Positions 5,274 through 57,862 of a stretch of DNA of 64,000 bases are shown one piece after another. The notes beneath the pieces were generated by a model that was not told the origin of the DNA, did no database searches, and saw nothing but the letters and a program-made list of their open reading frames with translations. Location: assembly GCF_041248615.1 (NCBI RefSeq), contig NZ_CP158426.1. One strand, given 5' to 3'. Within the stretch, counting starts at the first letter, position 1. Each line of letters starts with the position of its first letter. Source of the stretch: Escherichia coli (lineage in GTDB: Bacteria; Pseudomonadota; Gammaproteobacteria; Enterobacterales; Enterobacteriaceae). The translations under genes and the position numbers were made by a program.

Positions 5274-5434
5274 AATTCAAGTTTTCATGCTTATCTGTAC
5301 GTCTCTATTTGTTTACGATTCAGTAAGTTAGCGTGAAAATCCTTCCCGGTGCGTATCTGGTTTTCTCTCTGTATCGGGATAATTTGGTGGTCAGATCTGG
5401 GGTCAGTTTGGTTCGATTCTGGAGTGACCCCCAA

Positions 5435-6696: not shown

Positions 6697-6835
6697 ATCA
6701 GAAATAACGGAAATCATTAAAAATGTAAAAGCAGATCCTGATTGACCGGGATCTGCTTATTGTATTGAGAAGTATTACCATTTTTCTGTTATTATCAATC
6801 GGAAAGTATCTAAAAATATTTGGCCCCAAATAATT

Positions 6836-9566: not shown

Positions 9567-9755
9567 TCAGATAATTTCCGGTGATGTTTCCAGCGCATCC
9601 GCAATCAGTTTTTCGCCGCGCGGCCTGGAGCGGGTCAGCGCATTTGCCAGCGTGGAAGACGCCAGCCCGGCCCTGCGGGAAACCTCAGCCAGCGATGTTC
9701 CCTTTTTTCTCAGGCCCGCGATAATATCGGCGGGGTGCCAGTCGGGTTGCATCAT
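9567..9755 (-). CDS. Ner/Nlp-like small HTH DNA-binding protein
   Basis: 62-aa ORF with WHPADIIAGLRKKGTSLAEVSRRAGLASSTLANAL, closely resembling the Ner/Nlp family. Confidence 0.6.
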   Translation of the reverse strand: MMQPDWHPADIIAGLRKKGTSLAEVSRRAGLASSTLANALTRSRPRGEKLIADALETSPEII

Positions 9756-10213
9756 GCTGGCCTCCCGTCGATAACCTGTATGCCGTCAGCAGTACATATC
9801 CAGCGTGGGGCGTTCAGATTGGCGGCAAAATACCAGACCAGTTCGCACAGCAGCCCGGTCAGCGTGGTTTCGGTTTCCGGCAGCAGCACGTGGCCGTTCA
9901 GTATCTGCGTCAGCGCCAGGCAGTAATCGCAGAGTGATCCTGCATCAGGCTCAAAACCGGGTGAAACATCGGGAAGATCATTCGTAATAAACCCGTCAAT
10001 CAGATGTGGTGGGATCGGCTCGTTCAGCGTGGGCCGCAACAGTGCAAGACAGGTATTAAGCCTGCCACAGAGCGCCGTTTTCAGCGCCGGATCGCAGCAC
10101 TCGATGAGCGTTGTGGCAACGCGATCGCAGTACTCCGCCAGATCGGTGAAATCGGTAGCGGCACTAAAGGGAACAGCAAGTAAATTGCATTCAGAGGTGA
10201 GAGTAGTCGCCAT
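9752..10213 (-). CDS. Hypothetical protein (153 aa), 4-bp overlap with downstream Ner-like gene
   Basis: ORF only; overlapping stop/start with the Ner-like gene suggests an operon; no recognised domain. Confidence 0.35.
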   Translation of the reverse strand: MATTLTSECNLLAVPFSAATDFTDLAEYCDRVATTLIECCDPALKTALCGRLNTCLALLRPTLNEPIPPHLIDGFITNDLPDVSPGFEPDAGSLCDYCLALTQILNGHVLLPETETTLTGLLCELVWYFAANLNAPRWICTADGIQVIDGRPA

Positions 10214-10734
10214 AAGGCCGTCTACAGTGAGTGATAAATATTCCAGCCACTGGAGAGGCTAATCTCACGGGTGGTGGAACCGGACGGGGTTAGCCTTACC
10301 AGCCTCACTGACACTGGCGCGTCTTTCGACGCCCCCGCCCGATCCCGCCATTGAGATGAGACCGTGCGCGACACACAAATATTGTATCGTCAGTGAGGAT
10401 CTTCAGGAGGCTAATCCCGACGCCTGATTTTGCAGGCGCGGCGCAACAATACAATGTTCGGTAATTTTCAGCAAGAGGTTTAGCGGAAGCAGACGCACAG
10501 GAAAATACAATCACGCGATAAATATTAAATACAATTATATTTATATAAAATATATATTGAGCAATATGCAGACACTTTCCAGTAAATATCCTGTCAGTTA
10601 ATTCGTCCCGTTGATATCAGTCAAAAAAATAAATGTAAAAAGAGCGTATTTCGTTTCATACAGTAACGTTATTTATCATTTTGTCCGGTGTCGCCAGCAT
10701 CAGGCCAGATGAACCATAAAAAAGGATATCAGCG

Positions 10735-13700
10735 ATGAGCGGAAAACCGGCAGCACGTCAGGGCGATGCCACAATGAAAGGTGGCCCGATAGTCCAGGGG
10801 TCGGCAGGCGTGAGGATTGGCGCGCCAACCGGCGTGGCCTGTTCAGTGTGCCCCGGCGGATTCACTTCCGGTAACCCGGTGAATCCGCTGCTCGGTGCAA
10901 AAGTACAGCCCGGCGAAACCGATTTCGCGCTGCCCGGCCCGTTACCGTTCGTGCTCTCCCGCACCTACAGCAGCTACCGGACGAAAACCCCTGCGCCCGT
11001 CGGTATCTTCGGTCCTGGCTGGAAAGCACCCTTTGATATCCGCTTACAGATACGCGATAACGAACTGATACTCAATGATAACGGTGGCAGAAGCATTCAT
11101 TTTGAGCACCTGTTTCCCGGTGAGGATGGCTTCAGCCGCAGCGAATTATTCTGGCTGGTGCGCGGCGGCGTGGCGAAACTGAATGAAAGTCACCGTCTTG
11201 CCCCACTCTGGCAGGCTCTGCCGGAAGAACTCCGCATGAGTCCGCATATTTATCTGGCGACGAACAGTCCGCAGGGGCCGTGGTGGATACTCGGCTGGAG
11301 TGAGCGGGTACCGGGTGTGGATGAGGTGCTGCCTGCGCCATTGCCGCCGTACCGGGTGCTGACCGGCCTGGTGGACCGCTTCGGGCGTACCCTGACCTTC
11401 CGGCGTGAGGCAGTTGGCGAATTTACCGGGGAAATCACCGGCGTGACCGATGGCGCAGGCCGTCAGTTCCGCCTGGTGCTGACCACGCAGGCGCAGCGGG
11501 CGGAAGAGGCCCAGCAGCAGGCGGTTGCAGCCGGAGCAAAACGACCAGATATCCCGGTTTCATTGCCGGACTATACAGAATATGGCCGGGATAACGGCAT
11601 CCGCCTGTCAGCGGTGTGGCTGACGCATGACCCGGAATACCCGGAGAATTTACCTGCCGCGCCACTGGTGCGCTACGACTGGACGCCACGCGGTGAACTG
11701 GCGGCGGTGTATGACCGCAGCGGTACGCAGATGCGCCACTTTACTTACGATGATAAATACCGGGGCCGGATGGTGGCGCACCGTTACGCAGGCAGGCCGG
11801 AGATGCGTTACCGCTACGACGACATCGGGCGCGTGACGGAACAACGTAATCCGGCGGGTTTAAGCTACACCTATCAGTATGAGAAAAACCGCATCATCAT
11901 CACCGACAGCCTGAACCGGTGCGAGGTGCTGCATACAGAAGGCGAAGCCGGGCTGAAACGGGTGGTGAAAAAAGAGCACGCTGACGACAGCGTCACACAG
12001 AGTCAGTTCGATTCCATTGGCCGCCTTCAGTCACAGACGGATGCGGCAGGCCGGACGACAGAATACAGTCCGAATGTGGTGACGGGTCTCGTCACACGCA
12101 TCACCACGCCGGACGGCAGGAAATCGGAATTTTACTATAACAACCAGAACCAGTTAACCTCAGCATCCGGGCCTGACGGACTGGAAATGCGCAGGAAATA
12201 TGATGAGTACGGGCGTCTGACGCAGGAAACCGCTCGCAACGGCGATATCACCCGCTACAGTTATGATAATCCGCACAGTGAATTACCCTCTGCAACTGAA
12301 GATGCGACGGGTAGCCGCAAGCAGATGACGTGGAGCCGTTACGGGCAGTTACTGACTTTCACCGACTGCTCAGGCTACCAGACCCGTTATGAATACGACC
12401 GCTTTGGTCAGATGACGGCGGTCCACCGTGAGGAAGGTGTCAGTCTTTACCGCAGCTATGACAGCCGTGGTCAGTTAATCTCGGTGAAAGATACGCAGGG
12501 CCGTGAAACGCAGTATGAGTACAACGGTGCAGGCGACCTGACCGCCATTATCACGCCAGACGACAACAGAAGCGAGACACAGTACGATGCGTGGGGAAAG
12601 GCCGTCAGTACCACGCAGGGCGGGCTGACGCGCAGCATGGAATACGACGTTGCCGGACGTGTCATCAGCCTGACCAACGAGAACGGCTGTCACAGCGACT
12701 TCAGTTACGATGTGCTCGACCGCCTGATACAGCAGAGCGGCTTTGACGGGCGGACGCAACGTTACCGTTACGACCTGACCGGGAAACTCACGCAGAACGA
12801 GGATGAGGGGCTTGTCACCCTCTGGCACTACGACGAATCGGACCGTATCACACACCGCACGGTGAACGGCGAACCGGCAGAGCAGTGGCGGTATAACGCC
12901 CACGGCTGGCTGAAAGAAATCAGCCACCTGAGCGAAGGTCACCGGGTGGCGGTGCATTACGGCTATAACCGTAAGGGACGTCTCACCGGCGAGCGCCAGA
13001 CGGTGCATAACCCGGAGACGGGGGAACTGCTCTGGCTGCATGAGACAAAACACGCCTACAACGAACAGGGTCTGGCAAACCGCGTCACGCCGGACTGCCT
13101 GCCTGCTGTGGAGTGGCTGACCTACGGCAGCGGTTACCTGGCGGGGATGAAGCTGGGCGACACGCCGCTGCTGGAGTACGCGCGCGACCGCCTGCACAGA
13201 GAAACGGTGCGCAGCTTTGGCAGCATGGCAGGCAGTAATGCCGCATACGAACTGACCAGCACATACACCCCCGCAGGCCAGTTACAGAGCCAGCACCTGA
13301 ACAGCCTGGTGTATGACCGTGACTATGGGTGGAATGACAACGGCGACCTGGTGCGCATCAGCGGCCCGCGACAGACGCGGGAATACGGCTACAGCGCCAC
13401 GGGCAGGCTGGCGAGTGTGCGCACCCTCGCACCGGACCTGGACATCCGCATCCCGTATGCCACGGACCCGGCGGGCAACCGGCTGCCGGACCCGGAGCTG
13501 CACCCGGACAGTACACTCACAGTGTGGCCGGATAACCGCATCGCGGAGGATGCGCACTATGTCTACCGCCACGATGAATACGGCAGGCTGACGGAGAAGA
13601 CGGACCGCATCCCGGCGGGTGTGATACGGACGGACGACGAGCGGACCCACCACTACCACTACGACAGCCAGCACCGCCTGGTGTTCTACACGCGGATACA

Positions 13701-14916
13701 GCATGGAGAGCCACTGGTCGAGAGCCGCTACCTCTACGACCCGCTGGGACGGCGAATGGCGAAAAGGGTATGGCGGCGGGAGCGTGACCTGACGGGGTGG
13801 ATGTCGCTGTCGCGTAAACCGGAGGAGACATGGTACGGGTGGGACGGCGACAGGCTGACGACGGTGCAGACTGACACCACGCGTATCCAGACGGTGTACC
13901 AGCCGGGAAGCTTCACGCCGCTCATCAGAATCGAAACAGACGTGACCGAACTGGAGAAAGCGCAGCGGCGAAGCCTGGCGGAGAAGTTACAGCAGGAAGG
14001 GAGTAAAGATGGTCACGGCGTGGTGTTCCCGCCTGAACTGGTGCGGCTGCTGGACAGGCTGGAGGGGGAAATCCGGGCAGACCGTGTGAGTGACGAAAGC
14101 CGGGCGTGGCTTGCGCAGTGCGGGCTGACGGTGGAGCGGCTGGCGGCACAGATCGAGCCAGTTTATTTGCCTGAGCGAAAAATACATCTTTATCACTGCG
14201 ACCACCGGGGACTGCCGCTGGCGCTTATCAGTACTGAAGGTGCAACGGAATGGCGTGGGGAGTATGACGAGTGGGGGAATCAGCTTAATGAGGAGAACCC
14301 GCATCATCTGTTCCAGCCATACCGCCTGCCGGGGCAGCAGTACGATGATGAATCGGGGCTGTGCTATAATCGTTATCGTTACTACGAGCCGTTACAAGGG
14401 AGGTATATTACACAGGACCCGATTGGGTTAAATGGGGGGTGGAATTTATATAAATATCCGCTGAATCCAATAAATTATGCAGATCCTCTTGGCTTAGCCG
14501 TAGATATAAACCACTTCCCAGTCAACGAAGACATACGAAATTATGCAGAGAAAGTTTGGAATAATCCTAATATCATTACAATTGGAACACATGGTGATCC
14601 TCAATCAGTATATGATGAAAATTATAATAAGATAGATGTCAAGACATTAGCTAATGAGGTTCGAAATCATCCTAAATTTAAACCTGGAATGTCAGTAAGA
14701 CTGTTATCCTGTAATACAGGAAAAGGAAATAACTCTTTTGCACAGCAATTGGCAGATGAACTAGGTGTGAGAGTCTATGCTCCTGACCAATATGACTGGT
14801 ACTATTCAAATGGTAAGGTAGAGCCTTGGGGAGGATTCTATGATGCAAACAATCAATTGCAAATGGACACGAATCAGCCTGGACATGAGTTTACATTCAA
14901 GCGAAGGAAACCATAG
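10735..14916 (+). CDS. rhs: Rhs family polymorphic toxin (RHS/YD-repeat core plus variable C-terminal toxin tip)
   Basis: 1393-aa ORF starting [11 protein letters not shown] as in E. coli Rhs proteins; many YD repeats; core ends at ...[13 protein letters not shown]...YADPLGL (about 14497), followed by an AT-rich 139-aa tip. Confidence 0.9.
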
Positions 14917-14972
14917 GTATGAGGTATTTTCTCTTTATATTTATAACAATCCCCCTTATCTCTGGAGGTCAT

Positions 14973-15521
14973 ATGAGTAATGATAGCGAAAAGATAATAT
15001 CAACATATTCGCTCAATTTTTTATCACCAGATGATGTGAGGAAAGAAGAACTTAAGGCATCACAAGGTGATAGTGATGCTGCATTTAAATTGTACAAATA
15101 TTACCTTTTTTGCGAGCCAAAATCATACAGAAAACAGCACGAATGGTTAATAATATCGGCAAATAATGGAAATGCTATAGCTCAATATAACTTATCAAGA
15201 GAACTTGAGTCAGAAGGAAAAGTAGATGAATCAATACAATGGCTGAAAAAATCAGCGGAACATGGTAATAATTATGCACAATATCAGATGTCAAAATATT
15301 TATTAAAAATAGGTGATATTAGAGGATCGGAATATTATCTAAACTTATCTGCGGATAACGGATGTGTATTTGCAATAAAAGATATTATCAAAAATATGAT
15401 GGATAGTGGAAGGTACGATGACGCCCTCATTTGGGTTGAAAAATTGAAAAAATTGTATCCTGACACAAATACCGAACTTTACATACAAAAAATAACGCAG
15501 AAAAAAAAGCAATCCAAATAA
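14973..15521 (+). CDS. Putative Rhs immunity protein with Sel1-like repeats
   Basis: Immediately downstream of the rhs tip, AT-rich like the tip; GGAGG Shine-Dalgarno before ATG 14973; repeats GNAIAQYNL / GNNYAQYQM resemble Sel1/TPR-like motifs. Confidence 0.55.
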   Translation: MSNDSEKIISTYSLNFLSPDDVRKEELKASQGDSDAAFKLYKYYLFCEPKSYRKQHEWLIISANNGNAIAQYNLSRELESEGKVDESIQWLKKSAEHGNNYAQYQMSKYLLKIGDIRGSEYYLNLSADNGCVFAIKDIIKNMMDSGRYDDALIWVEKLKKLYPDTNTELYIQKITQKKKQSK

Positions 15522-15809
15522 TAATTATATATAATTACTCGCACAGAGTTACAGTATTGCAAGAAATATATCTAGCATATAAAGTCGCCGCCAGTAAAGA
15601 TAAAGTACTGTGTAATCCTTCCTCCCATATAGGGGTAAAAACTTAGCATCCAGTGCCCTCGACTTAATTTTTAGTATTTTCTCTGTGAAGTGACACTTCG
15701 TAGGATTCAGTTCATGTTTACCAGAAAAAAGGTGGTCATTCTGGTGGTCTTGACAATCTCGATTTTTTGTTTTAGCTTTCCAATCAGCCAATTAATGGCT
15801 ACGGCGATC

Positions 15810-15825
15810 CCAGTCAGAGGAGCCA
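15810..15825 (+). repeat. 16-bp direct repeat of tRNA-Asn 3' end (distal att boundary of asnW island)
   Basis: ccagtcagaggagcca is identical to the last 16 nt of asnW (5258..5273); preceded by tacggcgatc, which is also found at the asnT-side boundary (revcomp of 30131..30140). Confidence 0.75.
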
Positions 15826-29802: not shown

Positions 29803-30114
29803 GCTTACCTTCCCTGAACGAGCTAACATAAATGCGCCCTTTCTAGCACAGCGAAAAAAAGTAAATCCTGATAGCAATATGATTGAAAATTAATAACTTT
29901 TCGTTAAGCAGTTTTGGGTGTGAGTTGCAAGAGGGGAGACTACTGAATTACTCAAGTTTTATAATCGAGGGGAAAATGGTGATGGCGTCCATAGCAAAAC
30001 GCCCTCAACCATAAAGGTCGAGGGCGCTTAAGATGTCAAAAACCCGCTATCCGTTAAAAAGCAATGCTCAACTAAGGTCAGTGACATTGCGCTAAAAAGC
30101 GAATTTTTAGAATT

Positions 30115-30130
30115 TGGCTCCTCTGACTGG
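30115..30130 (-). repeat. tRNA-Asn 3'-end remnant (16 bp): att boundary of island 2 at the asnT site
   Basis: tggctcctctgactgg is the reverse complement of the tRNA-Asn 3' end; identity stops after 16 nt; adjacent island sequence is homologous to the island-1 end. Confidence 0.75.
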
Positions 30131-30479
30131 GATCGCCGTAGCCAATAACTGGCTAATAAATAAGCTAAACCTGAATTTCCTTTCTGTCAAGACCACCAAA
30201 CAGACCACCTTAAGTTATACATGTCATTCTGACCTGCTCTCAGTTGATTAGTACACCCTGAAATTAGTAATGTCATTCATATGACCCTGACCCCAAACCC
30301 TGCTCCATTCAGAAACAGAATTCCGGCATGATACATACTCCCCCTGAACCGAGGTGGTACTGATGAAAAAAATCTCGATTCACCGAAGAGCATATTGTGT
30401 TTGCCTTGACGCAGAAGTTACCAGCATGACTCAACTTCAGCCGACTCAACCACTATCCCAAACCTCTAGGATCAGAAAC

Positions 30480-31712
<1,233 letters not shown>

Positions 31713-39696: not shown

Positions 39697-40416
39697 TCAG
39701 AAGTAGGTTGTCCAGAAAGAGGAAACTGGCATCGCCAGTACCAATGCAGGAAGCATACTGGCTACCGGGAAGACCTTGATACCGGAAATACGCAGGCCGG
39801 TCGCCACCATTAGAACGCCACCCACAGCTGAAAAGTCGGCCTGCATGGCAGGCGTGGTCAGGGGCAATATATATATCGCGCTGTAGGCGAGTGCTAACTG
39901 AATGATAAGCTGGGGGAAAGCGACTAATGCCACGGCGTAACCCAGGGTTGTGGCAAAAATGAGGGCGGTCAGCAAATCCAGGAACGCTTTCGCGATAAGG
40001 ATACTCGAGTCCCCGGTCATGCCTTCGTGCATCGCACCAAAAATACCGGTGCCACTGGCACAAAAAAGGACGATGATCGCCACATAGTTTTGTAAAAACT
40101 GCGCCTGTGAGTCTTTGTCTCCGGGATCGCTTTTCACGACGAGCTCCACCAACCCACGGGCTTGTCCGCCCAGGTGGCTTATCCCTTTTTCCAGATAGCA
40201 GAGCTCGCCCACCAGTGTGCCGAGAAGGACCGATAGAACCATGACGGGCATATGGCTGACACTTGTCACAAGGACGATCCCCATACACAGGGAGGCAGCA
40301 CCAAAAATGAGCGGCATTGAGGTACGTAACCTTTCAGGTAGACGTGAGCTAATGATGGCTCCTGCCATCCCGCCGATCACGACGGCAGAGCCGTTGAACC
40401 ATGGGCCTGTAATCAT
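39697..40416 (-). CDS. Multi-pass inner-membrane protein (DUF554-like?), co-operonic with UbiX/UbiD-like genes
   Basis: 239-aa very hydrophobic ORF; start overlaps stop of upstream UbiX-like gene (40413..40416). Confidence 0.55.
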   Translation of the reverse strand: MITGPWFNGSAVVIGGMAGAIISSRLPERLRTSMPLIFGAASLCMGIVLVTSVSHMPVMVLSVLLGTLVGELCYLEKGISHLGGQARGLVELVVKSDPGDKDSQAQFLQNYVAIIVLFCASGTGIFGAMHEGMTGDSSILIAKAFLDLLTALIFATTLGYAVALVAFPQLIIQLALAYSAIYILPLTTPAMQADFSAVGGVLMVATGLRISGIKVFPVASMLPALVLAMPVSSFWTTYF

Positions 40417-41027
40417 AGCGATTTACTCCTGTTATTCAGGTTGGGAGTTTCACCCCAGCGCGGCAATGTGTCGCAATCAAGGTCGAGTAAACTCAGCGCC
40501 CGCGCAACACTATGAGCGAAGATGTTCTCAGTACTTGCAGGGCGTGCATACCAGGCAGGTACGGGTGGAAAAATGATGCCGCCGGTTTCGGTAACCTGAA
40601 GCATGTTACGAAGGTGCCCGGTATGCAGCGGCGTTTCCCGTACCATCAGAACCAGCCTCCGGCGCTCTTTCAGGGTCACATCGGCTGCCCGCACCAGCAA
40701 ACTGTTGGTTAAGCCCGCCGCAACAGCGGCGAGGGTGTTCATAGAGCAGGGGACAATCAACATCCCGGATGCCCTGAACGAACCGCTGGCGATGTCGGCT
40801 GCAATATCATCAAAGGGATAAATTACATCAGCCAGCTTATGAACGTCGTCTTCTGACAAAGTGGTTTCCAGACTGCGGGTCAGATGAGCGGCAGGAGAAA
40901 TCACAACGTGACTTTCCACGTTAAGTTGTCGCAGATAACGCAGGGCCTGCACTCCATATAAAAAACCGGATGCACCACTGATCCCAATGATGACGCGCTT
41001 GCGAGGAGAACATTCAGATGTCGACAT
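40413..41027 (-). CDS. UbiX/Pad1-family flavin prenyltransferase (prenyl-FMN synthase)
   Basis: 204-aa ORF with flavoprotein signature (VIIGISGASG...PCSMNTLAAVAAGLTNSLLVRAADVTLKERRRLVLMVRETPLH). Confidence 0.85.
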   Translation of the reverse strand: MSTSECSPRKRVIIGISGASGFLYGVQALRYLRQLNVESHVVISPAAHLTRSLETTLSEDDVHKLADVIYPFDDIAADIASGSFRASGMLIVPCSMNTLAAVAAGLTNSLLVRAADVTLKERRRLVLMVRETPLHTGHLRNMLQVTETGGIIFPPVPAWYARPASTENIFAHSVARALSLLDLDCDTLPRWGETPNLNNRSKSL

Positions 41028-41037
41028 TATGGCGTCC

Positions 41038-42522
41038 TCAGTACTTGAAGTTATCCGGGAGGAAACGACTGATCTCGACCTCCATGAATTCGCTGCGGCG
41101 AAACTGGCCTTTCATCGTGAACGGAACGGTACAGTCGAAAATAGTTTTACAGGCGATCCCGTGGTCGCGGACGGAGTAACTAAAAGCCGGGTCAGAGGAC
41201 GGATCGAGGGGATGGCACCTTACGCCGGGTATGAACACCGTGCTGATATCCCCCTGATAGCGTGTCGTCATTGCCCATATCACGTCATTGAGATCGAAAA
41301 TATCCACATCGTCATCAACCAGAATCACATGCTTGAGTTCCGAGAATGCGGAGAAGGCCAGAAGAGCCGCCTGGCGCTGACGACCTTCATCGTTTGGCAG
41401 ACGTTTTTTCACCTGCAATACGGCAAGATATTTTCCGGTCCCGGGTGACGGGCAGTGAACATTTTGCACAAAGCCGGGAAGGGCGCGCTCCACCAGTTGC
41501 AGAATACTGGCCTCGGTGGGGATCCCTGCCATATTGGTATGCTCGTCACTTGGACCAATGCAGGTCTGTAGAATTGGGTGACGGCGGTGGGTGATGGCTT
41601 TCACTTTTATCACTGGCACCATTTGCTGTGCCTGTCCGGTATAGCCGGGGAATTCCGGCATGGCTTTACCACTGTTGGTATTTTGATCCTCCCTGACCCG
41701 ATAGTTAGGAATGAGTTCCCCCTCGATAACGACTTCGGCGTTCGCAATGGCCCGGGCATTCACGGTCAGACACTGGCACAGCTCAACAGGCTGTTTACGC
41801 AAGCTCCCTGCCACTGACAGTTCGTCAAAACCAAGTGGAGTTGTGGGCGGTTCGAAGCAGGCACCGATTTCAATGGCTGGGTCAACACCAATGCTGATCG
41901 AGATGGGAAGTGGGGCCCCATCTTCCTCTGCTTTCTGACGGAACAAATCCAGATGCCGACCGGGAACGAAGTACATGGATATTTCATCCCTGTTTTGCAC
42001 GCACAGTCGGTGAATAGTGATGTCATGCTCGCCGGTATGTGGATCGGCGGCGTAGCACATACCGAGAGTGAAGTAAGGACCGGCATCCTCCGGCGTATTC
42101 GTGGGTGCTGGCAGGATATTGAGGATACTGAAATCCGGATCGGATGCCAGATGGACTACTTCCTGACAGACGGCATTTTCCTGCGGAATAACGACAGGAC
42201 TTATCGGGGTGCTTACCGCGTCTTTCAGTAAAAAGGCCAGCTTATCGGGTGTGGTATCCAGTAGCCGGGCCACGCGTTTTCGCGAGGCGAGAAGACCTAT
42301 CAGCACTCGCATATCGGTATAGCCTTTAATCCGGTTAAAGAGCATGGCTGGACCGATACGAGTCGGACGCATGACCGTACCGTGTGCCCCAATGTAGCGG
42401 TACACCCCTGACAGTTCTGCACTTGGATCAACGGGTTCATCGGTTTCGATAAGCTCATCATCAAACTTGCGCAGTACGGCCAGCGCACTGCGTAGGTCAG
42501 TCACTTTTTGTGTTTGAGACAT
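41038..42522 (-). CDS. UbiD-family (prenyl-FMN-dependent) decarboxylase
   Basis: 494-aa ORF with UbiD-family architecture; immediately upstream of the UbiX-like partner. Confidence 0.85.
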   Translation of the reverse strand: MSQTQKVTDLRSALAVLRKFDDELIETDEPVDPSAELSGVYRYIGAHGTVMRPTRIGPAMLFNRIKGYTDMRVLIGLLASRKRVARLLDTTPDKLAFLLKDAVSTPISPVVIPQENAVCQEVVHLASDPDFSILNILPAPTNTPEDAGPYFTLGMCYAADPHTGEHDITIHRLCVQNRDEISMYFVPGRHLDLFRQKAEEDGAPLPISISIGVDPAIEIGACFEPPTTPLGFDELSVAGSLRKQPVELCQCLTVNARAIANAEVVIEGELIPNYRVREDQNTNSGKAMPEFPGYTGQAQQMVPVIKVKAITHRRHPILQTCIGPSDEHTNMAGIPTEASILQLVERALPGFVQNVHCPSPGTGKYLAVLQVKKRLPNDEGRQRQAALLAFSAFSELKHVILVDDDVDIFDLNDVIWAMTTRYQGDISTVFIPGVRCHPLDPSSDPAFSYSVRDHGIACKTIFDCTVPFTMKGQFRRSEFMEVEISRFLPDNFKY

Positions 42523-42698
42523 TACGTTTTCCTCAGTAAGTCGCCGGGAGACAGCATGCCCGGTGTGCTTTTATCTTCATCCTGCAGGCAATCACAGGAC
42601 GAGCCGTTACATCACTGACAGTATGTGAGGCAACATAAATCCCCGTCTAATCACATTAACGACGTTTTTAATGTGGGATTGTTATCGAAAAATAGTGA

Positions 42699-43592
42699 TT
42701 GGAGGAACGTGTGGACTATCGGTATTTGCATGCATTTGTGGTGCTTGCCAGAGAACTGCATTTTGGAAAAGCCGCACTGCGGCTCAACATCACGCAGCCA
42801 GCCTTAAGCCGTCAGATTAGAGTGCTGGAAGATCAGCTTGGCATGGTGCTATTTACGCGTGATCGTCGTCATGTGGCGCTGACTGTGGAAGGAACTCAGC
42901 TTGCAGCGGAGGCGCGGAGCGCCGTCAGTCATTACGAAAAAATGCTGAGCCGTGCGAGTAGCCTTCGAAAAGGCTATAAAGGACAACTCATACTGGGTTA
43001 TGTCGGATCTTCCATTCTTGATCCCGCCCTGACACGGTTAATCACCTGTTTTCGCGAGACTAAACCGGATGTTGAGATTGTTATTGAGGAGCACAACGTT
43101 GACGAACAGCTCACCCTCCTGCTCGACCATCAACTGGATATGGGGCTGCTCCGATCGCCTGTTCCGCATTTTGCCAACCTGGACTACGTGGATATCGCCA
43201 CCAGGTCACTCATCGCCGCAGTACCGCACACGCATCCGCAGGCAGGAGTCGGTAAAATAGAGCTGGAGACGTTGTCCGGGGATACATTTATGATCCAGAA
43301 AGATCCGCCCGGGGTCGGGCTAGGCTGGTCTGCATTACATGCCTGTGAGATGGCCAGTTTTGTCCCACCCAAAATCTATTTTACTCGCGATGTTGCGGTG
43401 GCTATTGGCATGGTGTCGATGGGAATAGGAGTTACGCTGGTGCCAGAAACCCAGCGTTCTGTAACGTTGCCTAATGTCTGCTACTGCCTGCTGCACGATC
43501 CCGAGGTCACAACGACCTTAACGCTTTGCTGGCCGAAATTCAGGAAAAGCAGGGAATTGATAGAGTTTGTACGCTCTTTAACGCTTGGTTGA
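42699..43592 (+). CDS. LysR-family transcriptional regulator, divergent from the decarboxylase operon
   Basis: N-terminal LysR HTH (FGKAALRLNITQPALSRQIRVLEDQLG) plus substrate-binding domain; divergent arrangement typical of LysR regulators. Confidence 0.8.
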   Translation: MEERVDYRYLHAFVVLARELHFGKAALRLNITQPALSRQIRVLEDQLGMVLFTRDRRHVALTVEGTQLAAEARSAVSHYEKMLSRASSLRKGYKGQLILGYVGSSILDPALTRLITCFRETKPDVEIVIEEHNVDEQLTLLLDHQLDMGLLRSPVPHFANLDYVDIATRSLIAAVPHTHPQAGVGKIELETLSGDTFMIQKDPPGVGLGWSALHACEMASFVPPKIYFTRDVAVAIGMVSMGIGVTLVPETQRSVTLPNVCYCLLHDPEVTTTLTLCWPKFRKSRELIEFVRSLTLG

Positions 43593-44133
43593 ATCTTAAG
43601 AAGCTGCAGTTGAGTCATAGCCAGCGATCAAAATTGAGAAGACAAAACCGGGGAGAGGTGCCCGCAGTTTCTGCCCCAGCTCCCATCTTCAGGAAGATGT
43701 GTTTCAGGAATGCATTCGTGATGCTGGGGATAGCGGCAAGACGATTTTCTCATCGGGTAACTCTGCGGTATCGGAACAGTTGACGACGGCAGGGTGGTGA
43801 ATGGGAACCTCAGGATGAAGCGCTCGGGCAAGAGGGATGGACTGTGCTGAAGAGAACACTGACAGAACGAGCATGATGCTTGCAAAAAGGGGACTCTGGA
43901 TATTCATTGTTTATCTCCTGATGATATTCATCGCTCCAGAGAATACGCTTGCCACTCTTTTTATTTGTTTTCCTGAATTAAAAATGCCCGGTTTTATGTG
44001 GTTCTTCCGTAAACGTTATTACATTAATTAACATCTAGTTTCTATCTCCGAAATGAGGTAAAAAAATAATTGTCGTGGTTTTTATCAAACAAATTTACCG
44101 GCAGCTCAGATCCGAACTAATACCTGGAAATTC

Positions 44134-44182
44134 AAACCCCAAACCCCAAACCCCAAACCCCAAACACCAAACCCCAAACACC
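44134..44182. repeat. Heptanucleotide microsatellite (AAACCCC/AAACACC) x7
   Basis: Direct reading: aaacccc x4, aaacacc, aaacccc, aaacacc; opposite strand is G-rich (GGGGTTT)n. Confidence 0.95.
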
Positions 44183-44412
44183 ATTTCACCGCTGGCGTGT
44201 AAGGGGCTCTATATCTGTTTATTCAGGGATAGTTTTTTCTCCCGTGTGATTTCCGTTCATGTATCTGCTTCCGGTTAATCGTTTCCCAGCACAACCCGTC
44301 CCGCAAGGGTAAATGGCACGCCTGCTGCGCCCTTGCGGGATGGAACGATGCCGGGAAAGCGAACCGTCAGGCGATACGAAGACGAAAATCACACCACTGA
44401 CGGAGAAAAAAA

Positions 44413-45357
44413 ATGACTATGTCCCTGCATACCAAGATAAGTGCCCCTAACACGACAGCGGCGACCAGCGTATCCTCGCTGGATCTGTCAGGCTCCTCAA
44501 AAACGAAATGTTCAACAGCCAGAACCGATATTTATCAGACTGTTACCGACAGCATAATTGCGGCGCTGGAAACCGGAGTAAAACCTTGGGTGTGTCCTTG
44601 GCAGCGAGCTCCCGGTATGTCCGGTTTACCGTCCAATTACGCCACTGGTAAGGCTTACAGCGGAATGAATATCATGTTGCTTTGGTGCAGCGCGTCAAAA
44701 CAGGGATTCTGTGATTCACGCTGGATGACCTACAAACAGGCAAAAGCGGTAGGTGGGCAGGTGCGCAAGGGAGAACACGGCACTACCGCGATTTTCTATA
44801 CCACGCTGGAAAAGGAAAATGATAACGGAGAAACTGACTATATTCCTATGCTGAAAGCATTCACTGTGTTTAATGTTGAACAAATTGACGGTTTACTCCT
44901 GAGTGATGATGCCGTTTTTCCGGCAGAGATCTTTGAGCCATTACCACGTGCAGAAGCACTTTTTCGTAGTAGCGGTGCAACCATTATTGAAAAAGGACAG
45001 AATGCTTTTTTTACACCATCAACCGACGAAATTCGCTTACCTGAACGGTATCTTTTTATTGATGCTGCTAATTTCTACGCAACCGGCCTGCATGAGCTCG
45101 TTCACTGGAGTGGGGCAAAAAGTCGGCTGAACCGTGAAATGAAAGGGAAATTTGGCAGCGAGGGGTATGCGTTTGAAGAGTTGATCGCTGAGCTGGGGAG
45201 CGCATTCCTGATGGCGGATCTGGGGATAGTTGGAGAAGTTCTGCATGACAGTTATATCGCTTCCTGGCTTAAAGCACTGAGGAATGATAAACGCTATATT
45301 TTCAAGGCCGCCAGCGCGGCATCGAAAGCACATCGCTATTTGATGGATAAAAGCTGA
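44413..45357 (+). CDS. ArdC-like anti-restriction protein (N-terminal ssDNA-binding domain plus HExxH metalloprotease-like domain)
   Basis: 314-aa ORF; HELVHW motif in the C-terminal half; architecture and size fit ArdC/DUF1738 proteins of conjugative elements. Confidence 0.6.
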   Translation: MTMSLHTKISAPNTTAATSVSSLDLSGSSKTKCSTARTDIYQTVTDSIIAALETGVKPWVCPWQRAPGMSGLPSNYATGKAYSGMNIMLLWCSASKQGFCDSRWMTYKQAKAVGGQVRKGEHGTTAIFYTTLEKENDNGETDYIPMLKAFTVFNVEQIDGLLLSDDAVFPAEIFEPLPRAEALFRSSGATIIEKGQNAFFTPSTDEIRLPERYLFIDAANFYATGLHELVHWSGAKSRLNREMKGKFGSEGYAFEELIAELGSAFLMADLGIVGEVLHDSYIASWLKALRNDKRYIFKAASAASKAHRYLMDKS

Positions 45358-46200
45358 GTAGCAAAAAGCCGCAAAGGAATGCGGCTTAATGGGCTGGGGG
45401 TACTAAACCAGTAAAGGTTTAGTCAGTAATATTAGTGAAGCAGAGCAAGTATCGAACAGTCATATTCCTGTAGTGGTATTAAGACAACCTTAAGAAGGGA
45501 CTGATGTATAGCTACTCTTGTATACCCATCCATGGAAAATTCGGTTGTATTGCCGGGTTGATATGTGCAGGTTGGTCCCGACCCAAGAAGTTTTTACTGT
45601 GAAAATTGTCAAACTATATCAATGTGGTAACAGCTTCTCTTGTCCCTTTGGTTATTTCAAATTGGACCGGGCTATCTGTTGCAACACGGTTGCTCTGCTT
45701 GAAACAGAGTTAACATATGCAACATCAGATACTTTGAGTTTGATCAGATCATAGCCTCGTAGCTTACTGTCCAAGGTCATATTGAACAGAGTTAAATCGC
45801 GCATTTTACCTTCCATTTCAAGCCTGATTCGGATCCCCCCTGATATGAGATATCTGAAGTGGTCTTTTTGGTCAGTGATACTTACAATACGGTCTTTGTC
45901 CCACGGTGACGTGTTCATACTCAAAGCTCCTGTAATGTTGGAGATTTGAGCATGGTTATCCCTCATGAGCGAGGAACGGACAATGTCCCTTGCGCGATCC
46001 AAGATTGATTTTTCTTATTAAATTAAGCTATGGCTGACCTACGAACGATAGGCAAAATGCTCCTAAAGCTACGGCTTATGACAGTAAAAAACATATTGAT
46101 AAAAATCTGAGCTGGTTTAGAATGCTATAATGGAATAATTATTTATTTTCGGCCTTCAGTTTGATCATTTTTAGAAATCACCCTTTTGAAGGAATCTACA

Positions 46201-46995
46201 ATGGAATCAGAAGAAACGAAAGAAGAGAGTTATCAACAGCGTTCGGAGTTTATCAGAAAAATAATTCAACAGCCTGTTGAGGGTGTCATATCTTCATGCA
46301 CTATACCAAAAAAAATAATTCAATTTTGGGATTCATCCAATACTATCCCTAATGATGTCAGACATTGCATGAAATCATGGCGTATCTTAGAACCTTTTGG
46401 GTATGAGTATTTACTATATGATTTCGTTAGCGCCCAAGAATTTATTAAACATAATTTGGGTGAAACATACAGTGAAGCTTTTGCCAAGTGTACTCATCCT
46501 GCTATGCAATCAGATTATTTCCGATTATGTTATATCTCGGTAAACGGGGGATTTTATGTTGACACTGATGATGTTTATCTGGGTAGTGAGATAAGTAGTT
46601 TTTTCACGGATGATAAGTTAAAAATACAACCTTTATGCTACGATATTTCCACCGATTCTATGATTCCACCAGAAATTTTTACAAAGGAAAATACTTATGA
46701 AGAATCTTGGATTTTTTATTTCAACAACAACCCGTTAATTGCTCCGCCTCATCATGTTATCATTGATAAGGCACTAGAGCAATCCACATACTTACTTAAT
46801 AAATCAAGCTATCCTCTCACAGATATTCAGTCAACAACTGGTCCTGGTAATCTATCTAAATCTATTTTCTCGTGTCGCGAGGAAATAGATTTATTATCCC
46901 AGATTACGGTAGTATCAAACTGGCAAGATATTGCAGAAACTAAGTGGGATTTAGAATACAGAGCTGATTCTAGAAATTGGCGCTTGATGAATTAA
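46201..46995 (+). CDS. DXD-motif glycosyltransferase (Gly_transf_sug-like)
   Basis: QFWDS...AMQSDYFRLCYISVNGGFYVDTDDV motif pattern; GAAGGAA RBS before ATG 46201 (track start 46186 is TTG); AT-rich. Confidence 0.55.
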   Translation: MESEETKEESYQQRSEFIRKIIQQPVEGVISSCTIPKKIIQFWDSSNTIPNDVRHCMKSWRILEPFGYEYLLYDFVSAQEFIKHNLGETYSEAFAKCTHPAMQSDYFRLCYISVNGGFYVDTDDVYLGSEISSFFTDDKLKIQPLCYDISTDSMIPPEIFTKENTYEESWIFYFNNNPLIAPPHHVIIDKALEQSTYLLNKSSYPLTDIQSTTGPGNLSKSIFSCREEIDLLSQITVVSNWQDIAETKWDLEYRADSRNWRLMN

Positions 46996-47010
46996 CATGG
47001 ATTTTTAATA

Positions 47011-49212
47011 ATGAACATTAAAAATAATTTGAAAGGTATTAGCCGTTTTTTTTATTCTTTTTACTTACGCTCTCGGTTACTTCTCCCAGCGCAAAAATCA
47101 TCGACCTTTAATACATTAAATCAGAATGAAGGCGTTATTAGCAGGATTTACGCTATAAACTTAGAACGGGAAGCGATTAGATGGGCAGATTTAAATAAAG
47201 AACTGGGTAAAATACTAGATAAATCTAATAAAAAATTAACGAGCCAATTAACCAGATTCTCTGCTATAAACGCCAAAGAAATGTCAGACATTCTCAATGA
47301 GGAAGAGGTTATTCCTTATTATACTTTAGCAGACCAGTTGTACGTTGACCCTCAACCAAAAATCTTACCCGATAAATTTGATCTCGATGTCCCTATAAAA
47401 ATGAGTAAAGCGGAAATTGCTGTAGCATTATCGCATCTAAATGTTATTAGGCTTGTTGCAGAAGGTTCTGATGCATATGCTTTAGTGCTTGAGGATGACG
47501 TGTATTTTGAAAGAGATTTTGCCAAAACCTTAGATGCTGCTTGGTCTGAAATGATTCAAGCTGACAGATCTTCACCTGGTTTTGATATCTTATATTTGTC
47601 ATTTAAAGAGGTTATGAATGGCGCGAAAAAGAAAATTATTTCGAAAAGCATATTTAAACCAGAGCGAGGGTTATGGTATTTTTCAGGATATGTATTATCT
47701 AAGAAAGGAGCAAATAAAATCCTCTCACTCCTCCCAACTTATGGACCAATTGACTTATGGATAAATCATCAATTTGAGAAACTCGATGTGAGGGCAGTAT
47801 ATAAGTCGATCATTTCTCAGAGGTTGGATTTTAACTCTTCAAATTCCTATTCAATATTACCTACCTTAGTGAAGATTGGTATTATTGACAATGAAAAAGC
47901 TTCCAGTTTTAATGAACTTCCAAATTATTGGCCTGTTTTTGCATTTGGTGTAAGTGGTTCGGGTATTTCTTCTTTGGGTATGGCACTATCAATGCTTGGC
48001 TATAAGTGTTGTAGTGATATTGATAGACTTCCCAATGCAGACTTAAAAAATCTATTAAGTAATTCAGAGCAGAATGAATTCAATGCTTATGTAAATGTTG
48101 GCTGTCTCAGTAAGTATATCGGCATATTAAAAAAACAATATCCAAAAGCAAAATTTATAATTACCACGAGTGAATCAAAAGAAATCGAAGATGTTATTTT
48201 TAATATAATTGAGGAGATCGTTGATACTGACTATGTTGTATTGCATTCAGATGAAAAAAACAAATGGAAGGTTATATGTGAATACCTTCAATGCCCACCA
48301 CCTATTTCAGCGTACCCAGAAATGGCTGACATTATTCCTAGGCAGATTATAGATATCACCAGTGCAGCACAAATCAATAATTCAGAAATTAACATGATAC
48401 ATGACATTTCCCCTTGGATATTAGAAAGAAAGAATTTTTCAGGAAATGGTTTTTTTATAAAAGATAATCCGAAGAGAATTGAAAAAGAGCTTGCTGATTT
48501 CTTCATTAATGATTCACTACAAAATATTAATAATAACTATTGGGAAATTCGCGATGATACTTTCCCTGGAAATCTTGGACTGTTTCGACCTCAAAATGTG
48601 ATTCAAAATGATATTAGTGGTTTAGGTCTTGTAGTTAAGGAGGAACAGTTAGGCGTTAGAGAGTTTAGTGCTGCTGCGATTTCAAGTAGAATGAAGTTCC
48701 TATATGGCCGATTTGAAGTGTCCCTACGAGCGGCAAATGTTGCAGGGATAGTAACCGGCTTCTTTTTACATAGAGATTCGCCTCGTCAAGAAATCGATAT
48801 TGAGTTTGTTGGAAATCGATCTGATCATATGTTGATCAATGTTTTTTATAATCCTGGTGATGAAGGTGCAAAGTTTGATTATGGATATCGTGGTACACCA
48901 ACTCTTATTCCTTTAGGTTTTGATGCTTCTGAAGAGTTTCATGATTACATGATTGAATGGAGTCCTGATGAGATAAAATGGTTTGTGGATGGAGTTATGG
49001 TTTATCGTAGAGGAGTTTGGGGGCCTACACCTATACCTCATTTACCCATGACCCTTCATGCTAACACTTGGCCAACCCGTTCCAAGGAACTGGCGGGACG
49101 TCTCCACACGCGTTCCTTACCCTGTATCACTTATATTAGGAAAATATGTATTGATGCAACAATGGATGTTAATAATCCAAAATTAAATGACCAGACAGTA
49201 GTGGCTGGTTAA
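47011..49212 (+). CDS. Multidomain protein: N-terminal GT25-like glycosyltransferase, central P-loop-like region, C-terminal GH16-like domain
   Basis: N-terminal YAINLEREAIRWADL...LSHLNVIRL resembles family-25 LPS glycosyltransferases; C-terminal EIDIEFVG matches the GH16 ExDxxE catalytic motif; AT-rich. Confidence 0.5.
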   Translation: MNIKNNLKGISRFFYSFYLRSRLLLPAQKSSTFNTLNQNEGVISRIYAINLEREAIRWADLNKELGKILDKSNKKLTSQLTRFSAINAKEMSDILNEEEVIPYYTLADQLYVDPQPKILPDKFDLDVPIKMSKAEIAVALSHLNVIRLVAEGSDAYALVLEDDVYFERDFAKTLDAAWSEMIQADRSSPGFDILYLSFKEVMNGAKKKIISKSIFKPERGLWYFSGYVLSKKGANKILSLLPTYGPIDLWINHQFEKLDVRAVYKSIISQRLDFNSSNSYSILPTLVKIGIIDNEKASSFNELPNYWPVFAFGVSGSGISSLGMALSMLGYKCCSDIDRLPNADLKNLLSNSEQNEFNAYVNVGCLSKYIGILKKQYPKAKFIITTSESKEIEDVIFNIIEEIVDTDYVVLHSDEKNKWKVICEYLQCPPPISAYPEMADIIPRQIIDITSAAQINNSEINMIHDISPWILERKNFSGNGFFIKDNPKRIEKELADFFINDSLQNINNNYWEIRDDTFPGNLGLFRPQNVIQNDISGLGLVVKEEQLGVREFSAAAISSRMKFLYGRFEVSLRAANVAGIVTGFFLHRDSPRQEIDIEFVGNRSDHMLINVFYNPGDEGAKFDYGYRGTPTLIPLGFDASEEFHDYMIEWSPDEIKWFVDGVMVYRRGVWGPTPIPHLPMTLHANTWPTRSKELAGRLHTRSLPCITYIRKICIDATMDVNNPKLNDQTVVAG

Positions 49213-49490
49213 TCATTAGAGTGAAAAGTAAATATTAGTAAGGCACTGGTAAAAATGTAGACACTATCAGTGCCTTAGTAGTTATCCCTCTGGATGGTTT
49301 TTTGACAATAATTTCCGTTTCTGGCACGGAACGGACAGAAAGCAGGGCCACCAAATCTCTCACGAGCCAAAAACCTAAATTATGATCTGACAGATACATG
49401 TATCAATGAAACTGTCGCTGTCAGATCAATTACGCCTTACTATCTGAAAATTATTTGATTTTCTGCATCGTGCATTCAAATTAACAATGT

Positions 49491-50342
49491 TCAGGAGGCA
49501 TAAACTGAAAGGAGTTCTTTAGCTGCCAATTGACCAAGTGCGTTGGCTGCAAAAGGACTGTCACCTGTCAGTACCTTACGATCTTTGTATACGCTTCCTT
49601 TAATATCATCATTAACAATATTCATCCCCATTTGCTTAAGTGCATCGCCAAAATACCATGTGAGATGGCCCGGCATATAACCAATGTCAGGCGTCTGCTT
49701 ATCAGCTGAATCAGGGAAAGCGCAAATAGAATACTCTTTTAGAGGGTTTTCACCATTGCGCAGCGAAAGGAATGCTGCTGGGCCATGGCAAAGGGATATG
49801 ACGAAGCGGTCATTGTCCATGAACCAGCGAAGAGTATCGGCTACTGCGCTGCTTTCTGGCAGCCCAATCAGTGCGCCGTGGCCACCAGGAATAAACACGG
49901 CAGCATATTCACTTTGCTTGTTCAGGCTATTCAATACATCAGACAATTTTTCAGGATTTTGGAACTTGTCTCTATACCGGCTGAAAAATGGCATAACTTT
50001 CTCATCCTTGTGCGGCATGGCCCAGTATTCGAACTTTGTCATGTAACCTGAGATTGTCGCAATGTCAAAATCAAAACCAGCAGCATGCAGGTGATACATT
50101 GGAATAAGCGTTTCAACAGGATGGTTTCCCGTTGAGAACAGAGCCCCGCTATCAGTCATCAGGTAACGCTCATCCGCAGCGATGACCAGCACCTTCTTCC
50201 CTCCCATGCACTGTTTGGGATAGTCGTAGTCACTAAGGTCAGATACGGGGCTGGTAAACTGACTAAGGGAATAGTCAGAGGGGAAAAATGCGTTTTCTTC
50301 AGCATGATCCACTTTCGGATGTTTACTTTTATCATTTGTCAT
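49491..50342 (-). CDS. HchA/Hsp31-like glyoxalase (DJ-1/PfpI family), island-borne paralog
   Basis: ORF 49491..50504; start placed at ATG 50342 (MTNDKSKHPKVDHAEENAFFPSDYSLSQFTSPVSDL...), 283 aa, strongly resembling recalled E. coli HchA including ...SLCHGPAAF...; the longer ORF reads into the IS2 end. Confidence 0.85.
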   Translation of the reverse strand: MTNDKSKHPKVDHAEENAFFPSDYSLSQFTSPVSDLSDYDYPKQCMGGKKVLVIAADERYLMTDSGALFSTGNHPVETLIPMYHLHAAGFDFDIATISGYMTKFEYWAMPHKDEKVMPFFSRYRDKFQNPEKLSDVLNSLNKQSEYAAVFIPGGHGALIGLPESSAVADTLRWFMDNDRFVISLCHGPAAFLSLRNGENPLKEYSICAFPDSADKQTPDIGYMPGHLTWYFGDALKQMGMNIVNDDIKGSVYKDRKVLTGDSPFAANALGQLAAKELLSVYAS

Positions 50343-50514: not shown

Positions 50515-50880
50515 ATGATTGATGTCTTAGGACCGGAGAAACGCAGACGGCGTACTACACAGGAAAAGATCGCTATTGTTCAGCAGAGTTTTGAACCGGG
50601 AATGAAGGTCTCCCTTGTTGCCCGGCAACACGGTGTGGCAGCCAGCCAGTTATTTCTCTGGCGCAAGCAATACCAGGAGGGAAGTCTTACTGCTGTGGCC
50701 GCAGGAGAGCAGGTCGTTCCTGCCTCTGAACTTGCTGCTGCCATGAAGCAGATTAAAGAACTCCAGCGCCTGCTCGGCAAAAAAACGATGGAAAATGAAC
50801 TCCTTAAAGAAGCCGTTGAATACGGGCGTGCAAAAAAGTGGATAGCGCACGCGCCCTTATTGCCCGGGGATGGGGAGTAA
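50515..50880 (+). CDS. insC: IS2 transposase OrfA (InsC)
   Basis: [53 protein letters not shown]... matches recalled IS2 InsC. Confidence 0.85.
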
Positions 50881-51743
50881 GCTTAGTCAGCCGTTGTCTC
50901 CGGGTGTCGCGTGCGCAGTTGCACGTAATTCTCAGACGAACCGATGACTGGAAAGATGGTCGCCGCAGCCGTCACTCAGATGATACGGATGTGCTTCTCC
51001 GTATACACCATGTTATCGGAGAGCTGCCCACGTATGGTTATCGTCGGGTATGGGCGCTGCTTCGCAGACAGGCCGAACTTGATGGTACGCCTGCGATCAA
51101 TGCCAAACGTGTTTACCGGATCATGCGCCAGAATGCGCTGTTGCTTGAGCGAAAAACCGCTGTACCGCCATCGAAACGGGCACATACTGGCAAAGTGGCC
51201 GTGAAAGAAAGCAATCAACGATGGTGCTCTGACGGGTTCGAGTTCCGCTGTGATAACGGAGAAAAACTGCGAGTCACGTTCGCGCTGGACTGCTGTGACC
51301 GTGAGGCACTGCACTGGGCAGTCACTACGGGCGGCTTCGACAGTGAAACAGTACAGGACGTCATGCTGGGAGCGGTGGAACGCCGCTTCGGCAACGAGCT
51401 TCCGGCGTCTCCAGTAGAGTGGCTGACGGATAATGGTTCATGCTACCGGGCTAATGAAACACGGCAGTTTGCCCGGATATTGGGGCTTGAACCGAAGAAC
51501 ACGGCGGTGCGGAGTCCGGAGAGTAACGGCATAGCAGAGAGCTTCGTGAAAACGATAAAGCGTGACTACATCAGTATCATGCCTAAACCAGACGGGTTAA
51601 CGGCAGCAAAGAACCTTGCAGAGGCGTTCGAGCATTATAACGAATGGCATCCGCATAGTGCACTGGGTTATCGCTCGCCACGGGAATATCTGCGGCAGCA
51701 GGCCAGTAATGGGTTAAGTGATAACAGGTGTCTGGAAATATAG
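50838..51743 (+). CDS. insD: IS2 transposase OrfB (InsD, DDE integrase domain)
   Basis: 301-aa ORF overlapping orfA in another frame, as in IS3-family OrfAB arrangement; DDE-type catalytic region. Confidence 0.85.
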
Positions 51744-55633: not shown

Positions 55634-55709
55634 GCCAGAAATTAGCCAGCCTCAACCCCGCCGTCTGTCAGTCTGTGGCGCTGTGAGGCATAGTGTAATG
55701 TCCGGTGGT

Positions 55710-57849: not shown

Positions 57850-57862
57850 TTGTGGAGGGAGT

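Follow-up and report, generated by a model that had tools for sequence, protein, structure and literature searches.

Upstream of yeeJ, in a 64,000-nucleotide stretch of an Escherichia coli chromosome (the window), a short copy of the 3' end of tRNA-Asn stands outside any tRNA gene. We asked what this remnant marks. A sequence-only reading had taken it for the distal end of an ICE in a tRNA-Asn gene, related to the high-pathogenicity island (HPI), with the intact tRNA gene, the integrase and any siderophore module lying beyond the window. We found that 30109-30210 is very probably the attR junction of a 51.7-kb ICE in asnT, whose backbone belongs to the HPI-ICE family (ICEEc1 / ICEKp1).

The junction upstream of yeeJ and the far end at asnT

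The remnant is real. Its distance to yeeJ is 313 bp by the RefSeq start (29802) and 238 bp by the start of the longest open reading frame (29877). The tRNA-Asn 3' end, CCAGTCAGAGGAGCCA, has five matches with at most one mismatch in the window, three in tRNA-Asn genes and two outside them (Table 1). At this junction the repeat proved longer than the 16 bp first noted: the core is a 22-bp direct repeat, compared with 20 bp at the island in asnW, and it is identical to the copy at an intact asnT 51.7 kb away. The empty asnT site of K-12 reads asnT, core, and then AATTCTAAAAATTCGC. To the left of 30115 the window follows the K-12 asnT downstream flank, exactly so from 30114 leftwards, while the DNA to the right of 30130 is foreign. 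In the junction alignment, K-12 asnT and its flank equal the left half of attL joined to the right half of attR. The DNA from 30131 to the end of the window had been called accessory, and this is borne out: it is absent from K-12, its GC content is mosaic (32-54%), and the region was found in four records (three strains) among 5426 E. coli genomes.

We read the sequence beyond 64000 in E. coli NRZ14408 (NZ_LT599825.1), where the window corresponds to 2051672-2115671 with 100% identity. The element ends 17.9 kb past the window, with the tRNA 3' core at 81856-81871 in window-equivalent coordinates. As had been predicted, the tRNA gene and an integrase are there: an intact asnT and an intact 423-aa integrase lie on the inner side, and mtfA and serU lie on the outer side. 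The integrase is a P4-type tyrosine integrase, encoded 161 bp from asnT on the same strand. It has the Pfam domains Arm-DNA-bind_3, Phage_int_M, and Phage_integrase and shares 82% identity with the HPI integrase encoded between asnT and ybtS in an HPI-positive E. coli. Just past mtfA, serU is occupied by a lambdoid prophage whose integrase is frameshifted (record 2134711-2150840); therefore, the asnT ICE adjoins another mobile element.

The left part of the window is syntenic with K-12 and runs ldtA, asnV (965-1040, minus strand), nac, cbl, asnU (3374-3449, minus strand), yeeO, and asnW (5198-5273, plus strand). A 10.5-kb island, yeeN, amn, shiA, a GT9 gene, and a frameshifted yeeJ follow, and the accessory DNA begins at 30131. 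Because of this synteny, the names asnT and asnW given earlier to the two sites are correct. The yeeJ gene (21837-29802, minus strand) encodes an inverse autotransporter adhesin and carries a frameshift in its annotation; in NCTC9087, yeeJ is truncated beside a related island end.

Table 1. Features of the two tRNA-Asn islands in the window
Feature	Position	Strand	Remarks
CCAGTCAGAGGAGCCA in tRNA-Asn genes	965-980; 3374-3389; 5258-5273	-; -; +	
CCAGTCAGAGGAGCCA outside tRNA genes	15810-15825; 30115-30130	+; -	
asnW and degenerate island	5198..15825	+	island 10.5 kb, 20-bp direct repeat
asnW-island integrase, frameshifted	5435-6696		halves 64-75% aa identity (about 71%) to ICE integrase
asnW-island second integrase fragment	8060-8650		
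asnW-island Rhs core protein	10735-14916		island also has a TPR protein
asnW-island attR arm	15730-15809		core 15810-15825
attR core, 22-bp direct repeat	30109..30130	-	tRNA-Asn 3' end (30115-30130) plus AATTCT (30109-30114)
Island terminus, attR / P' arm, 80 bp	30131..30210	-	four-island alignment, identity profile, 72-arm consensus
Imperfect inverted repeat AGCCAGTTATTGGCT	30140-30154		in 80-bp terminus
TAGCTT	30162-30167		candidate box in 80-bp terminus
TTGACA	30185-30190		candidate box in 80-bp terminus
GGTGGTC repeats, two	30191-30197; 30203-30209		in 80-bp terminus
IS3-family transposase, frameshifted	30488..31640	-	just inside attR end; RefSeq
Lamassu-type (ABC-three-component) anti-phage system	32390..38380	+	four genes; PADLOC, RefSeq names
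Variable cargo	39697..50342		DUF554, UbiX, UbiD, LysR, ArdC, integrase fragment, GT32, GH16, second hchA
IS3-family element, intact	50515..51743	+	between cargo and transfer module
MobC-family relaxase	52343-53095	-	85% aa identity to K71-77 ybt-ICE
VirD4/MobB-type coupling protein (T4CP)	53107-55002	-	79% aa identity to K71-77 ybt-ICE
Candidate oriT, non-coding	55033..55709	-	upstream of coupling-protein gene
Mating-pair formation genes	55710..64000	-	hypothetical, TrbM, Cag12, VirB11/10/9/8/6, EexN, VirB5 (cut at window end)
335-aa ORF	57863-58870	+	opposite strand, between virB11 and virB10, in 1.3-kb insertion

Transfer backbone and recent movement

Read from the integrase side, the backbone encodes a 306-aa hypothetical protein, AlpA, DUF2857, TraR, VirB1, VirB2, VirB3/4, VirB5, EexN, and VirB6, followed by a small ORF, VirB8, VirB9, VirB10, the 335-aa ORF, VirB11, Cag12, TrbM, and a hypothetical protein, and then by a 0.68-kb non-coding stretch, the coupling protein, and MobC. 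The genes for VirB3/4, VirB2, VirB1, TraR, DUF2857, and AlpA/Xis lie past 64000. The same order, beginning at fyuA, is found in E. coli strain K71-77, which thus has a yersiniabactin ICE (ybt-ICE). VirB1, 2, 3/4, 5, 6, 8, 9, 10, and 11 are all annotated as intact and are collinear with their K71-77 counterparts at 70-88% amino acid identity; int, AlpA, T4CP, and MobC are likewise annotated as intact. Over the whole set, protein identity to the K71-77 ICE ranges from 45 to 88%, with VirB11 at 88%, VirB4 at 86%, the 61-aa AlpA-family excisionase at 85%, ArdC at 79%, and DUF2857 and a hypothetical protein lowest at 45-46%. Together with the 82% identity of the integrase, this collinear VirB/VirD4/MobC set upholds the proposal that the remnant is the distal (attR) end of an asn-tRNA ICE with kin in the HPI family.

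In the non-coding stretch located upstream of the coupling-protein gene, nucleotide identity to the K71-77 equivalent reaches 90%, compared with 76-78% over the mobC-coupling protein segment of which it is part. The stretch contains a long perfect inverted repeat (GCGCGACCAACCCCTTTAA...) and two copies of a 12-bp direct repeat, AGAAATTGTTAA. The oriT of ICEKp1/ICEEc1 has inverted repeats, a direct repeat, and nic motifs (PMC4891358). The stretch has the position and architecture of that oriT and is a candidate for the same role. Because gene order, identities, and the oriT-like region agree, the element has, at the sequence level, every backbone feature of ICEEc1/ICEKp1 that we tested and lacks only the yersiniabactin cargo. 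A search with mobC and coupling-protein DNA hit about 185 E. coli chromosomes, K71-77 among them, with identities of 76-78%, and the mob module was present at an identity of at least 95% in 4 or 5 records among 5426 complete E. coli genomes.

The K71-77 ybt-ICE is without the 1.3-kb insertion that holds the 335-aa ORF, and its virB10 and virB11 overlap. Neither Pfam, even with the cutoff relaxed to E = 10, nor PADLOC gave a match for the ORF. This insertion, or the IS3 element between mobC and the cargo, could impair transfer of the NRZ14408 copy.

The integrase protein (WP_172408808.1) is identical in NRZ14408, YF-1, and 2018-06-4CC. In the latter two strains the same ICE (99.8%) is in asnV, in the order ldtA, attR...int-tRNA, nac, with the same attR arm and core. 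At its right end, the 2018-06-4CC copy carries ISApl1 and an S1 peptidase gene that are absent in NRZ14408 (NZ_AP021893.1 1819343-1826325); ISApl1 is the insertion sequence tied to mcr-1 mobilisation. In the public assembly collection, 76 blocks contain the identical integrase. In the ten contigs that we read, the 11.5-kb int-proximal part was 99.76-100% identical, and the flanks were those of E. coli asnT, of E. coli asnV, or, in four contigs, of non-E. coli chromosomes, in which the orthologous genes beside the element show only 72-78% identity to those of E. coli. Judged by sequence identity, the ICE would have to have moved recently between genera and into different tRNA-Asn copies, because copies that are at least 99.8% identical occur in asnT, in asnV, and in hosts with such 72-78% flanks. 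The HPI of Yersinia pseudotuberculosis and the pks island likewise insert in different tRNA-Asn copies (PMC8209727).

These data bear on whether the locus is instead a fixed, decayed island like the truncated HPI, with the 16-bp repeat as a functionless fossil scar. The HPI is truncated in most E. coli. Some erosion or accretion is evident here, since the element has IS3 twice, a fragment of an unrelated integrase, and the extra ORF in the virB operon. The neighbouring asnW island, which has a frameshifted integrase and occurs in 206 of the 5426 complete E. coli genomes, is just such a fossil. However, the 22-bp repeats of the asnT element are identical, its int, AlpA, VirB, T4CP, and MobC genes are annotated as intact, and its near-identical copies occupy two tRNA-Asn genes as well as hosts of other genera. 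We consider decay quite unlikely.

Cargo and the slot of the yersiniabactin genes

Beyond the frameshifted IS3 copy at the attR end lies the Lamassu-type system, for which PADLOC gave matches to LmuA (6.8e-125), LmuA (1.2e-122), LmuC (1.8e-44), and LmuB (1.6e-269). It has a GC content of 32-40% and includes an MBL-fold LmuA variant. In the right-end region of related islands, K71-77 carries Hachiman and CBASS and strain 0H26 carries Qat. Because these islands also have defence genes there, the right end of the ICE appears to be a defence-gene hotspot.

The remaining cargo is varied. Genes for a UbiD decarboxylase, a UbiX prenyltransferase, DUF554, and a divergent LysR regulator at 39697-43592 form a probable aromatic-acid decarboxylase cluster. 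The pair encoded at 46201-49212 (plus strand, GC 34-38%), a GT32 glycosyltransferase and a GH16 glycosyl hydrolase of 733 aa, had no match to a defence family. The ICE also carries a copy of hchA (glyoxalase III) at 49491-50342 (minus strand); hchA is usually a chromosomal E. coli gene, sited near this region. An integrase pseudogene at 45517-45918 was considered as an internal asn-type integrase and rejected as unrelated, because tblastn with the ICE and HPI integrases matched 5435-6678/6681 only.

Could the cargo near attR come from another element? Tandem accretion at asn tDNAs has been described (PMC2801613, PMC4891358), and a small asn-tRNA island might lie beside the ICE, in which case the attR at 30115 would not be that of the VirB element. 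The very different GC content of the attR-proximal part and the unrelated integrase fragment would fit such a tandem composite. However, the whole 51.7-kb element has only two copies of the core, one per end, and a search allowing up to two mismatches found no internal core between them. Moreover, in asnV of YF-1 the whole 30.1-36 kb right end accompanies the same int and left end, and the K71-77 ybt-ICE has the same layout, its defence genes likewise lying between MobC and the right end. A tandem composite is thus highly unlikely.

The integrase, the att arms, and the transfer module are of the HPI-ICE type, as they would be in a yersiniabactin HPI-ICE proper (ICEEc1/ICEKp) with ybt past the window, where a siderophore module had been anticipated. 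This expectation failed: the complete 51.7-kb element contains no ybt, irp, or fyuA genes, and none lie between int and AlpA in the complete record. Instead, the ybt slot (int to the hypothetical protein/AlpA; record 2122659-2131829) encodes a porin, a LuxR-type regulator, an ABC ATPase, a FecCD/BtuC-type permease, a Peripla_BP_2 binding protein, a DHA2 MFS exporter, AmiA, and an OmpC/PhoE-like porin. This is an uptake/export set without biosynthesis genes or a TonB-dependent receptor. The same porin/ABC/MFS/AmiA content fills the slot in all ten other contigs with the identical integrase that we read, and the yersiniabactin reading is refuted.

The conserved island end and its family

The asnT element and the asnW island had been said to share the flank beside their cores. 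The likeness is real, with two mismatches in the first 24 bp beside the core, but its extent had been understated at about 35 bp: aligning both island ends gave 60 identities over 80 ungapped positions (75%), and the sequences are random with respect to each other beyond 80 bp. With blastn, the sole match between the ICE DNA of the window and the asnW island was 81 bp at 75.3% identity (E = 2e-9). That homologous ends imply related integrases also holds (64-75% amino acid identity, with the asnW copy frameshifted); such ends are not, however, special to these two islands and are found throughout the family. The pks island of strain 536 has a matching attR arm (86.8% over 106 bp), as does the Qat-defence island at asnT in strain 0H26 (88.8%). 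The right-end flank of HPI-ICEEh1, agttactggcaaaggcgatc (from PMC2801613 Table 1), matches the NRZ14408 arm at 17 of 20 positions, and the ICEKp1 F_attR primer GGTTTAGCTTACTTATTAGCCAGTTATTGG together with the Taqman-attR/P probe CAAAGGCGATCCCAGTCAGAGGAGCCA matches the reverse complement of 30115-30171 at 54 of 57. That the 16-bp match arose by chance in ordinary intergenic DNA can be dismissed, since shuffled sequences gave a mean of 0.01 matches, the adjoining 80 bp are homologous to other asn-island ends, and island-free K-12 has asnT itself here, with an exact junction.

We scanned the species-representative genomes of the Enterobacterales for GGTGGTCTTGACA-N(44-50)-GGCGATC followed by the core. 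This right-end pattern matched 82 stretches, in hosts that include Yersinia pestis, Klebsiella, Citrobacter, Enterobacter, Raoultella, Serratia, Pantoea, Erwinia, Pectobacterium, Dickeya, Brenneria, Rahnella, and Sodalis. The spacer was exactly 47 in 79 of the 80 retrievable matches. Among 72 unique arms, the sequences conserved outside the fixed pattern were an upstream second GGTGGTCA repeat, TTTAGCTT, and AGCCAnTTAnTGGC, and conservation in the consensus ended sharply 80 bp from the core. In annotation, the right end of this island family is marked precisely by GGTGGTCTTGACA-N47-GGCGATC with the tRNA-Asn core after it.

What might the conserved end do? According to a 2026 study of ICEKp1 (PMC13023037), the conserved 3' end of that element carries a sigma-70 promoter, P3'end, which was demonstrated experimentally. 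In the integrated element, int is transcribed from the tRNA-Asn promoter and through three stem-loops that attenuate it; after excision, P3'end transcribes int across attP, and the final 15 bp of the 3' end lift the attenuation. A similar switch of the int promoter is described there for ICEEc1. Alignment shows the 80-bp terminus of the asnT element to be homologous to this 3'-end region, which makes it a candidate promoter. As the best candidate boxes we infer TTGACA and TAGCTT, separated by a 17-nt variable spacer, on the basis of conservation and the ICEKp1 paper rather than a consensus scan. A strict sigma-70 consensus scan of 29900-30500 called no promoter, because TAGCTT matches TATAAT at only three of six positions, and at both island ends strict sigma-70 and terminator scans were negative. 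For ICEKp1 the transcription start site is given as 15 bp upstream of the joint, some 9 bp further downstream than TTGACA-17-TAGCTT would predict, and the exact boxes are therefore only candidates. The attR arm contains two copies of GGTGGTC, and the attL arm contains one, along with GGGGTC. These repeats are plausible arm-type Int sites, because the integrase has an arm-binding domain. Folding predicts three stem-loops for the int leader, the number reported for ICEKp1, with the last covering the GGAG ribosome-binding site, and in the predicted minimum free energy fold of the reconstructed attP leader the terminal UUGGCUACGGC pairs with the GGUGGUCAA segment. These features broaden the ICEKp1 3'-end observation to the family as a sharply bounded, conserved 80-bp module across the Enterobacterales, and the module is consistent with a putative promoter plus integrase-binding role.

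By homology with ICEKp1 and the HPI, Int and Xis would recombine the 22-bp attL and attR cores to form a circle, in which the 80-bp terminus would lie directly upstream of the core and int. The candidate promoter would then read over attP into int, taking over from the asnT promoter, which would drive int while the element is integrated. The GGTGGTC repeats of both arms would be the likely binding sites for the arm-binding part of Int. MobC would nick oriT, the VirB system would transfer the strand, and Int would reinsert the element at any identical tRNA-Asn gene. Thus understood, the NRZ14408 element would be self-transmissible, its excision and transfer being proposed by homology.

The K71-77 ybt-ICE, ICEEc1, and HPI-ICEEh1 likewise sit in the 3' end of tRNA-Asn and have the same core repeat; the direct repeat of the family is given as at least 17 bp, CCAGTCAGAGGAGCCAA (PMC2801613 Table 1). 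This group shares with the NRZ14408 element the HPI-type integrase and the backbone order, followed by ArdC-containing variable cargo. The NRZ14408 element differs in that it lacks ybt/irp/fyuA, in its backbone (76-78% nucleotide and 45-88% amino acid identity), in the extra ORF between virB10 and virB11, and in its own cargo of Lamassu, UbiD/X, GH16/GT32, and hchA. ICEKp1, which we compared through published primers and a probe, has the same att core and nearly the same 3' end, and its primer F6 (GAAAAATTGGTGGTCAAATCTGGG) matches the int 5' flank in NRZ14408. By analogy, the int promoter switch of ICEKp1 between the integrated and excised states is expected in the NRZ14408 element. However, ICEKp is defined by ybt, which is missing here, and ICEKp1 also has iro and rmpA.

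The non-mobile E. coli HPI at asnT has a related integrase and the same attL arm. It no longer has the right repeat or the transfer genes (PMC8209727), whereas the NRZ14408 element has kept both ends and the full transfer module. The pks island (asnW/U/V) has the same integrase family and attR arm but no full transfer module. The asn-tDNA islands of Klebsiella pneumoniae form 12 homology groups, including GIE492 (Marcoleta 2016, PMC4891358); they have a common 17-20-bp repeat, integrases with 74-89% identity, a conserved oriT, and different cargo, and integrase cross-talk has been proposed for them (PMC4891358). They were described in Klebsiella, and none was matched here to the NRZ14408 cargo set. 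The MobC and coupling-protein pair also occurs in CloDF13-type MobB/MobC systems and pMET1/pCRY-like plasmids, at about 70% nucleotide identity on many E. coli plasmids. The resemblance of pMET1/pCRY-like plasmids to these ICEs has been noted (PMC2262945); unlike the NRZ14408 element, they have no integrase or att module. A literature search found no specific description of this ybt-less element or of the NRZ14408 chromosomal islands.

Two further readings, which we graded jointly, are tentative and on the whole doubtful. One is that the block replacing ybt is a transferable uptake/envelope module. If so, it could exploit a metallophore or another small molecule from other bacteria and would be a "cheater" counterpart of the yersiniabactin island, spreading between genera on the same ICE chassis. 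The other is that the Rhs-bearing asnW island can be excised by the ICE integrase. A search against the ICE found no oriT-like sequence in this island, with the 81-bp attR arm as the only shared stretch. Excision in trans is conceivable because its att arms remain of the family type, and a like event has been suggested for asn islands of Klebsiella (PMC4891358).

The mechanism and the ICE family are both known; what is new is a member without ybt that carries Lamassu. Current understanding is unchanged by this clean, well-supported case. The conjugative chassis of the HPI and ICEKp circulates without its signature virulence cargo and carries phage-defence and transport genes instead. The element is near-identical in E. 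coli and in bacteria of other genera, and it uses any tRNA-Asn copy.
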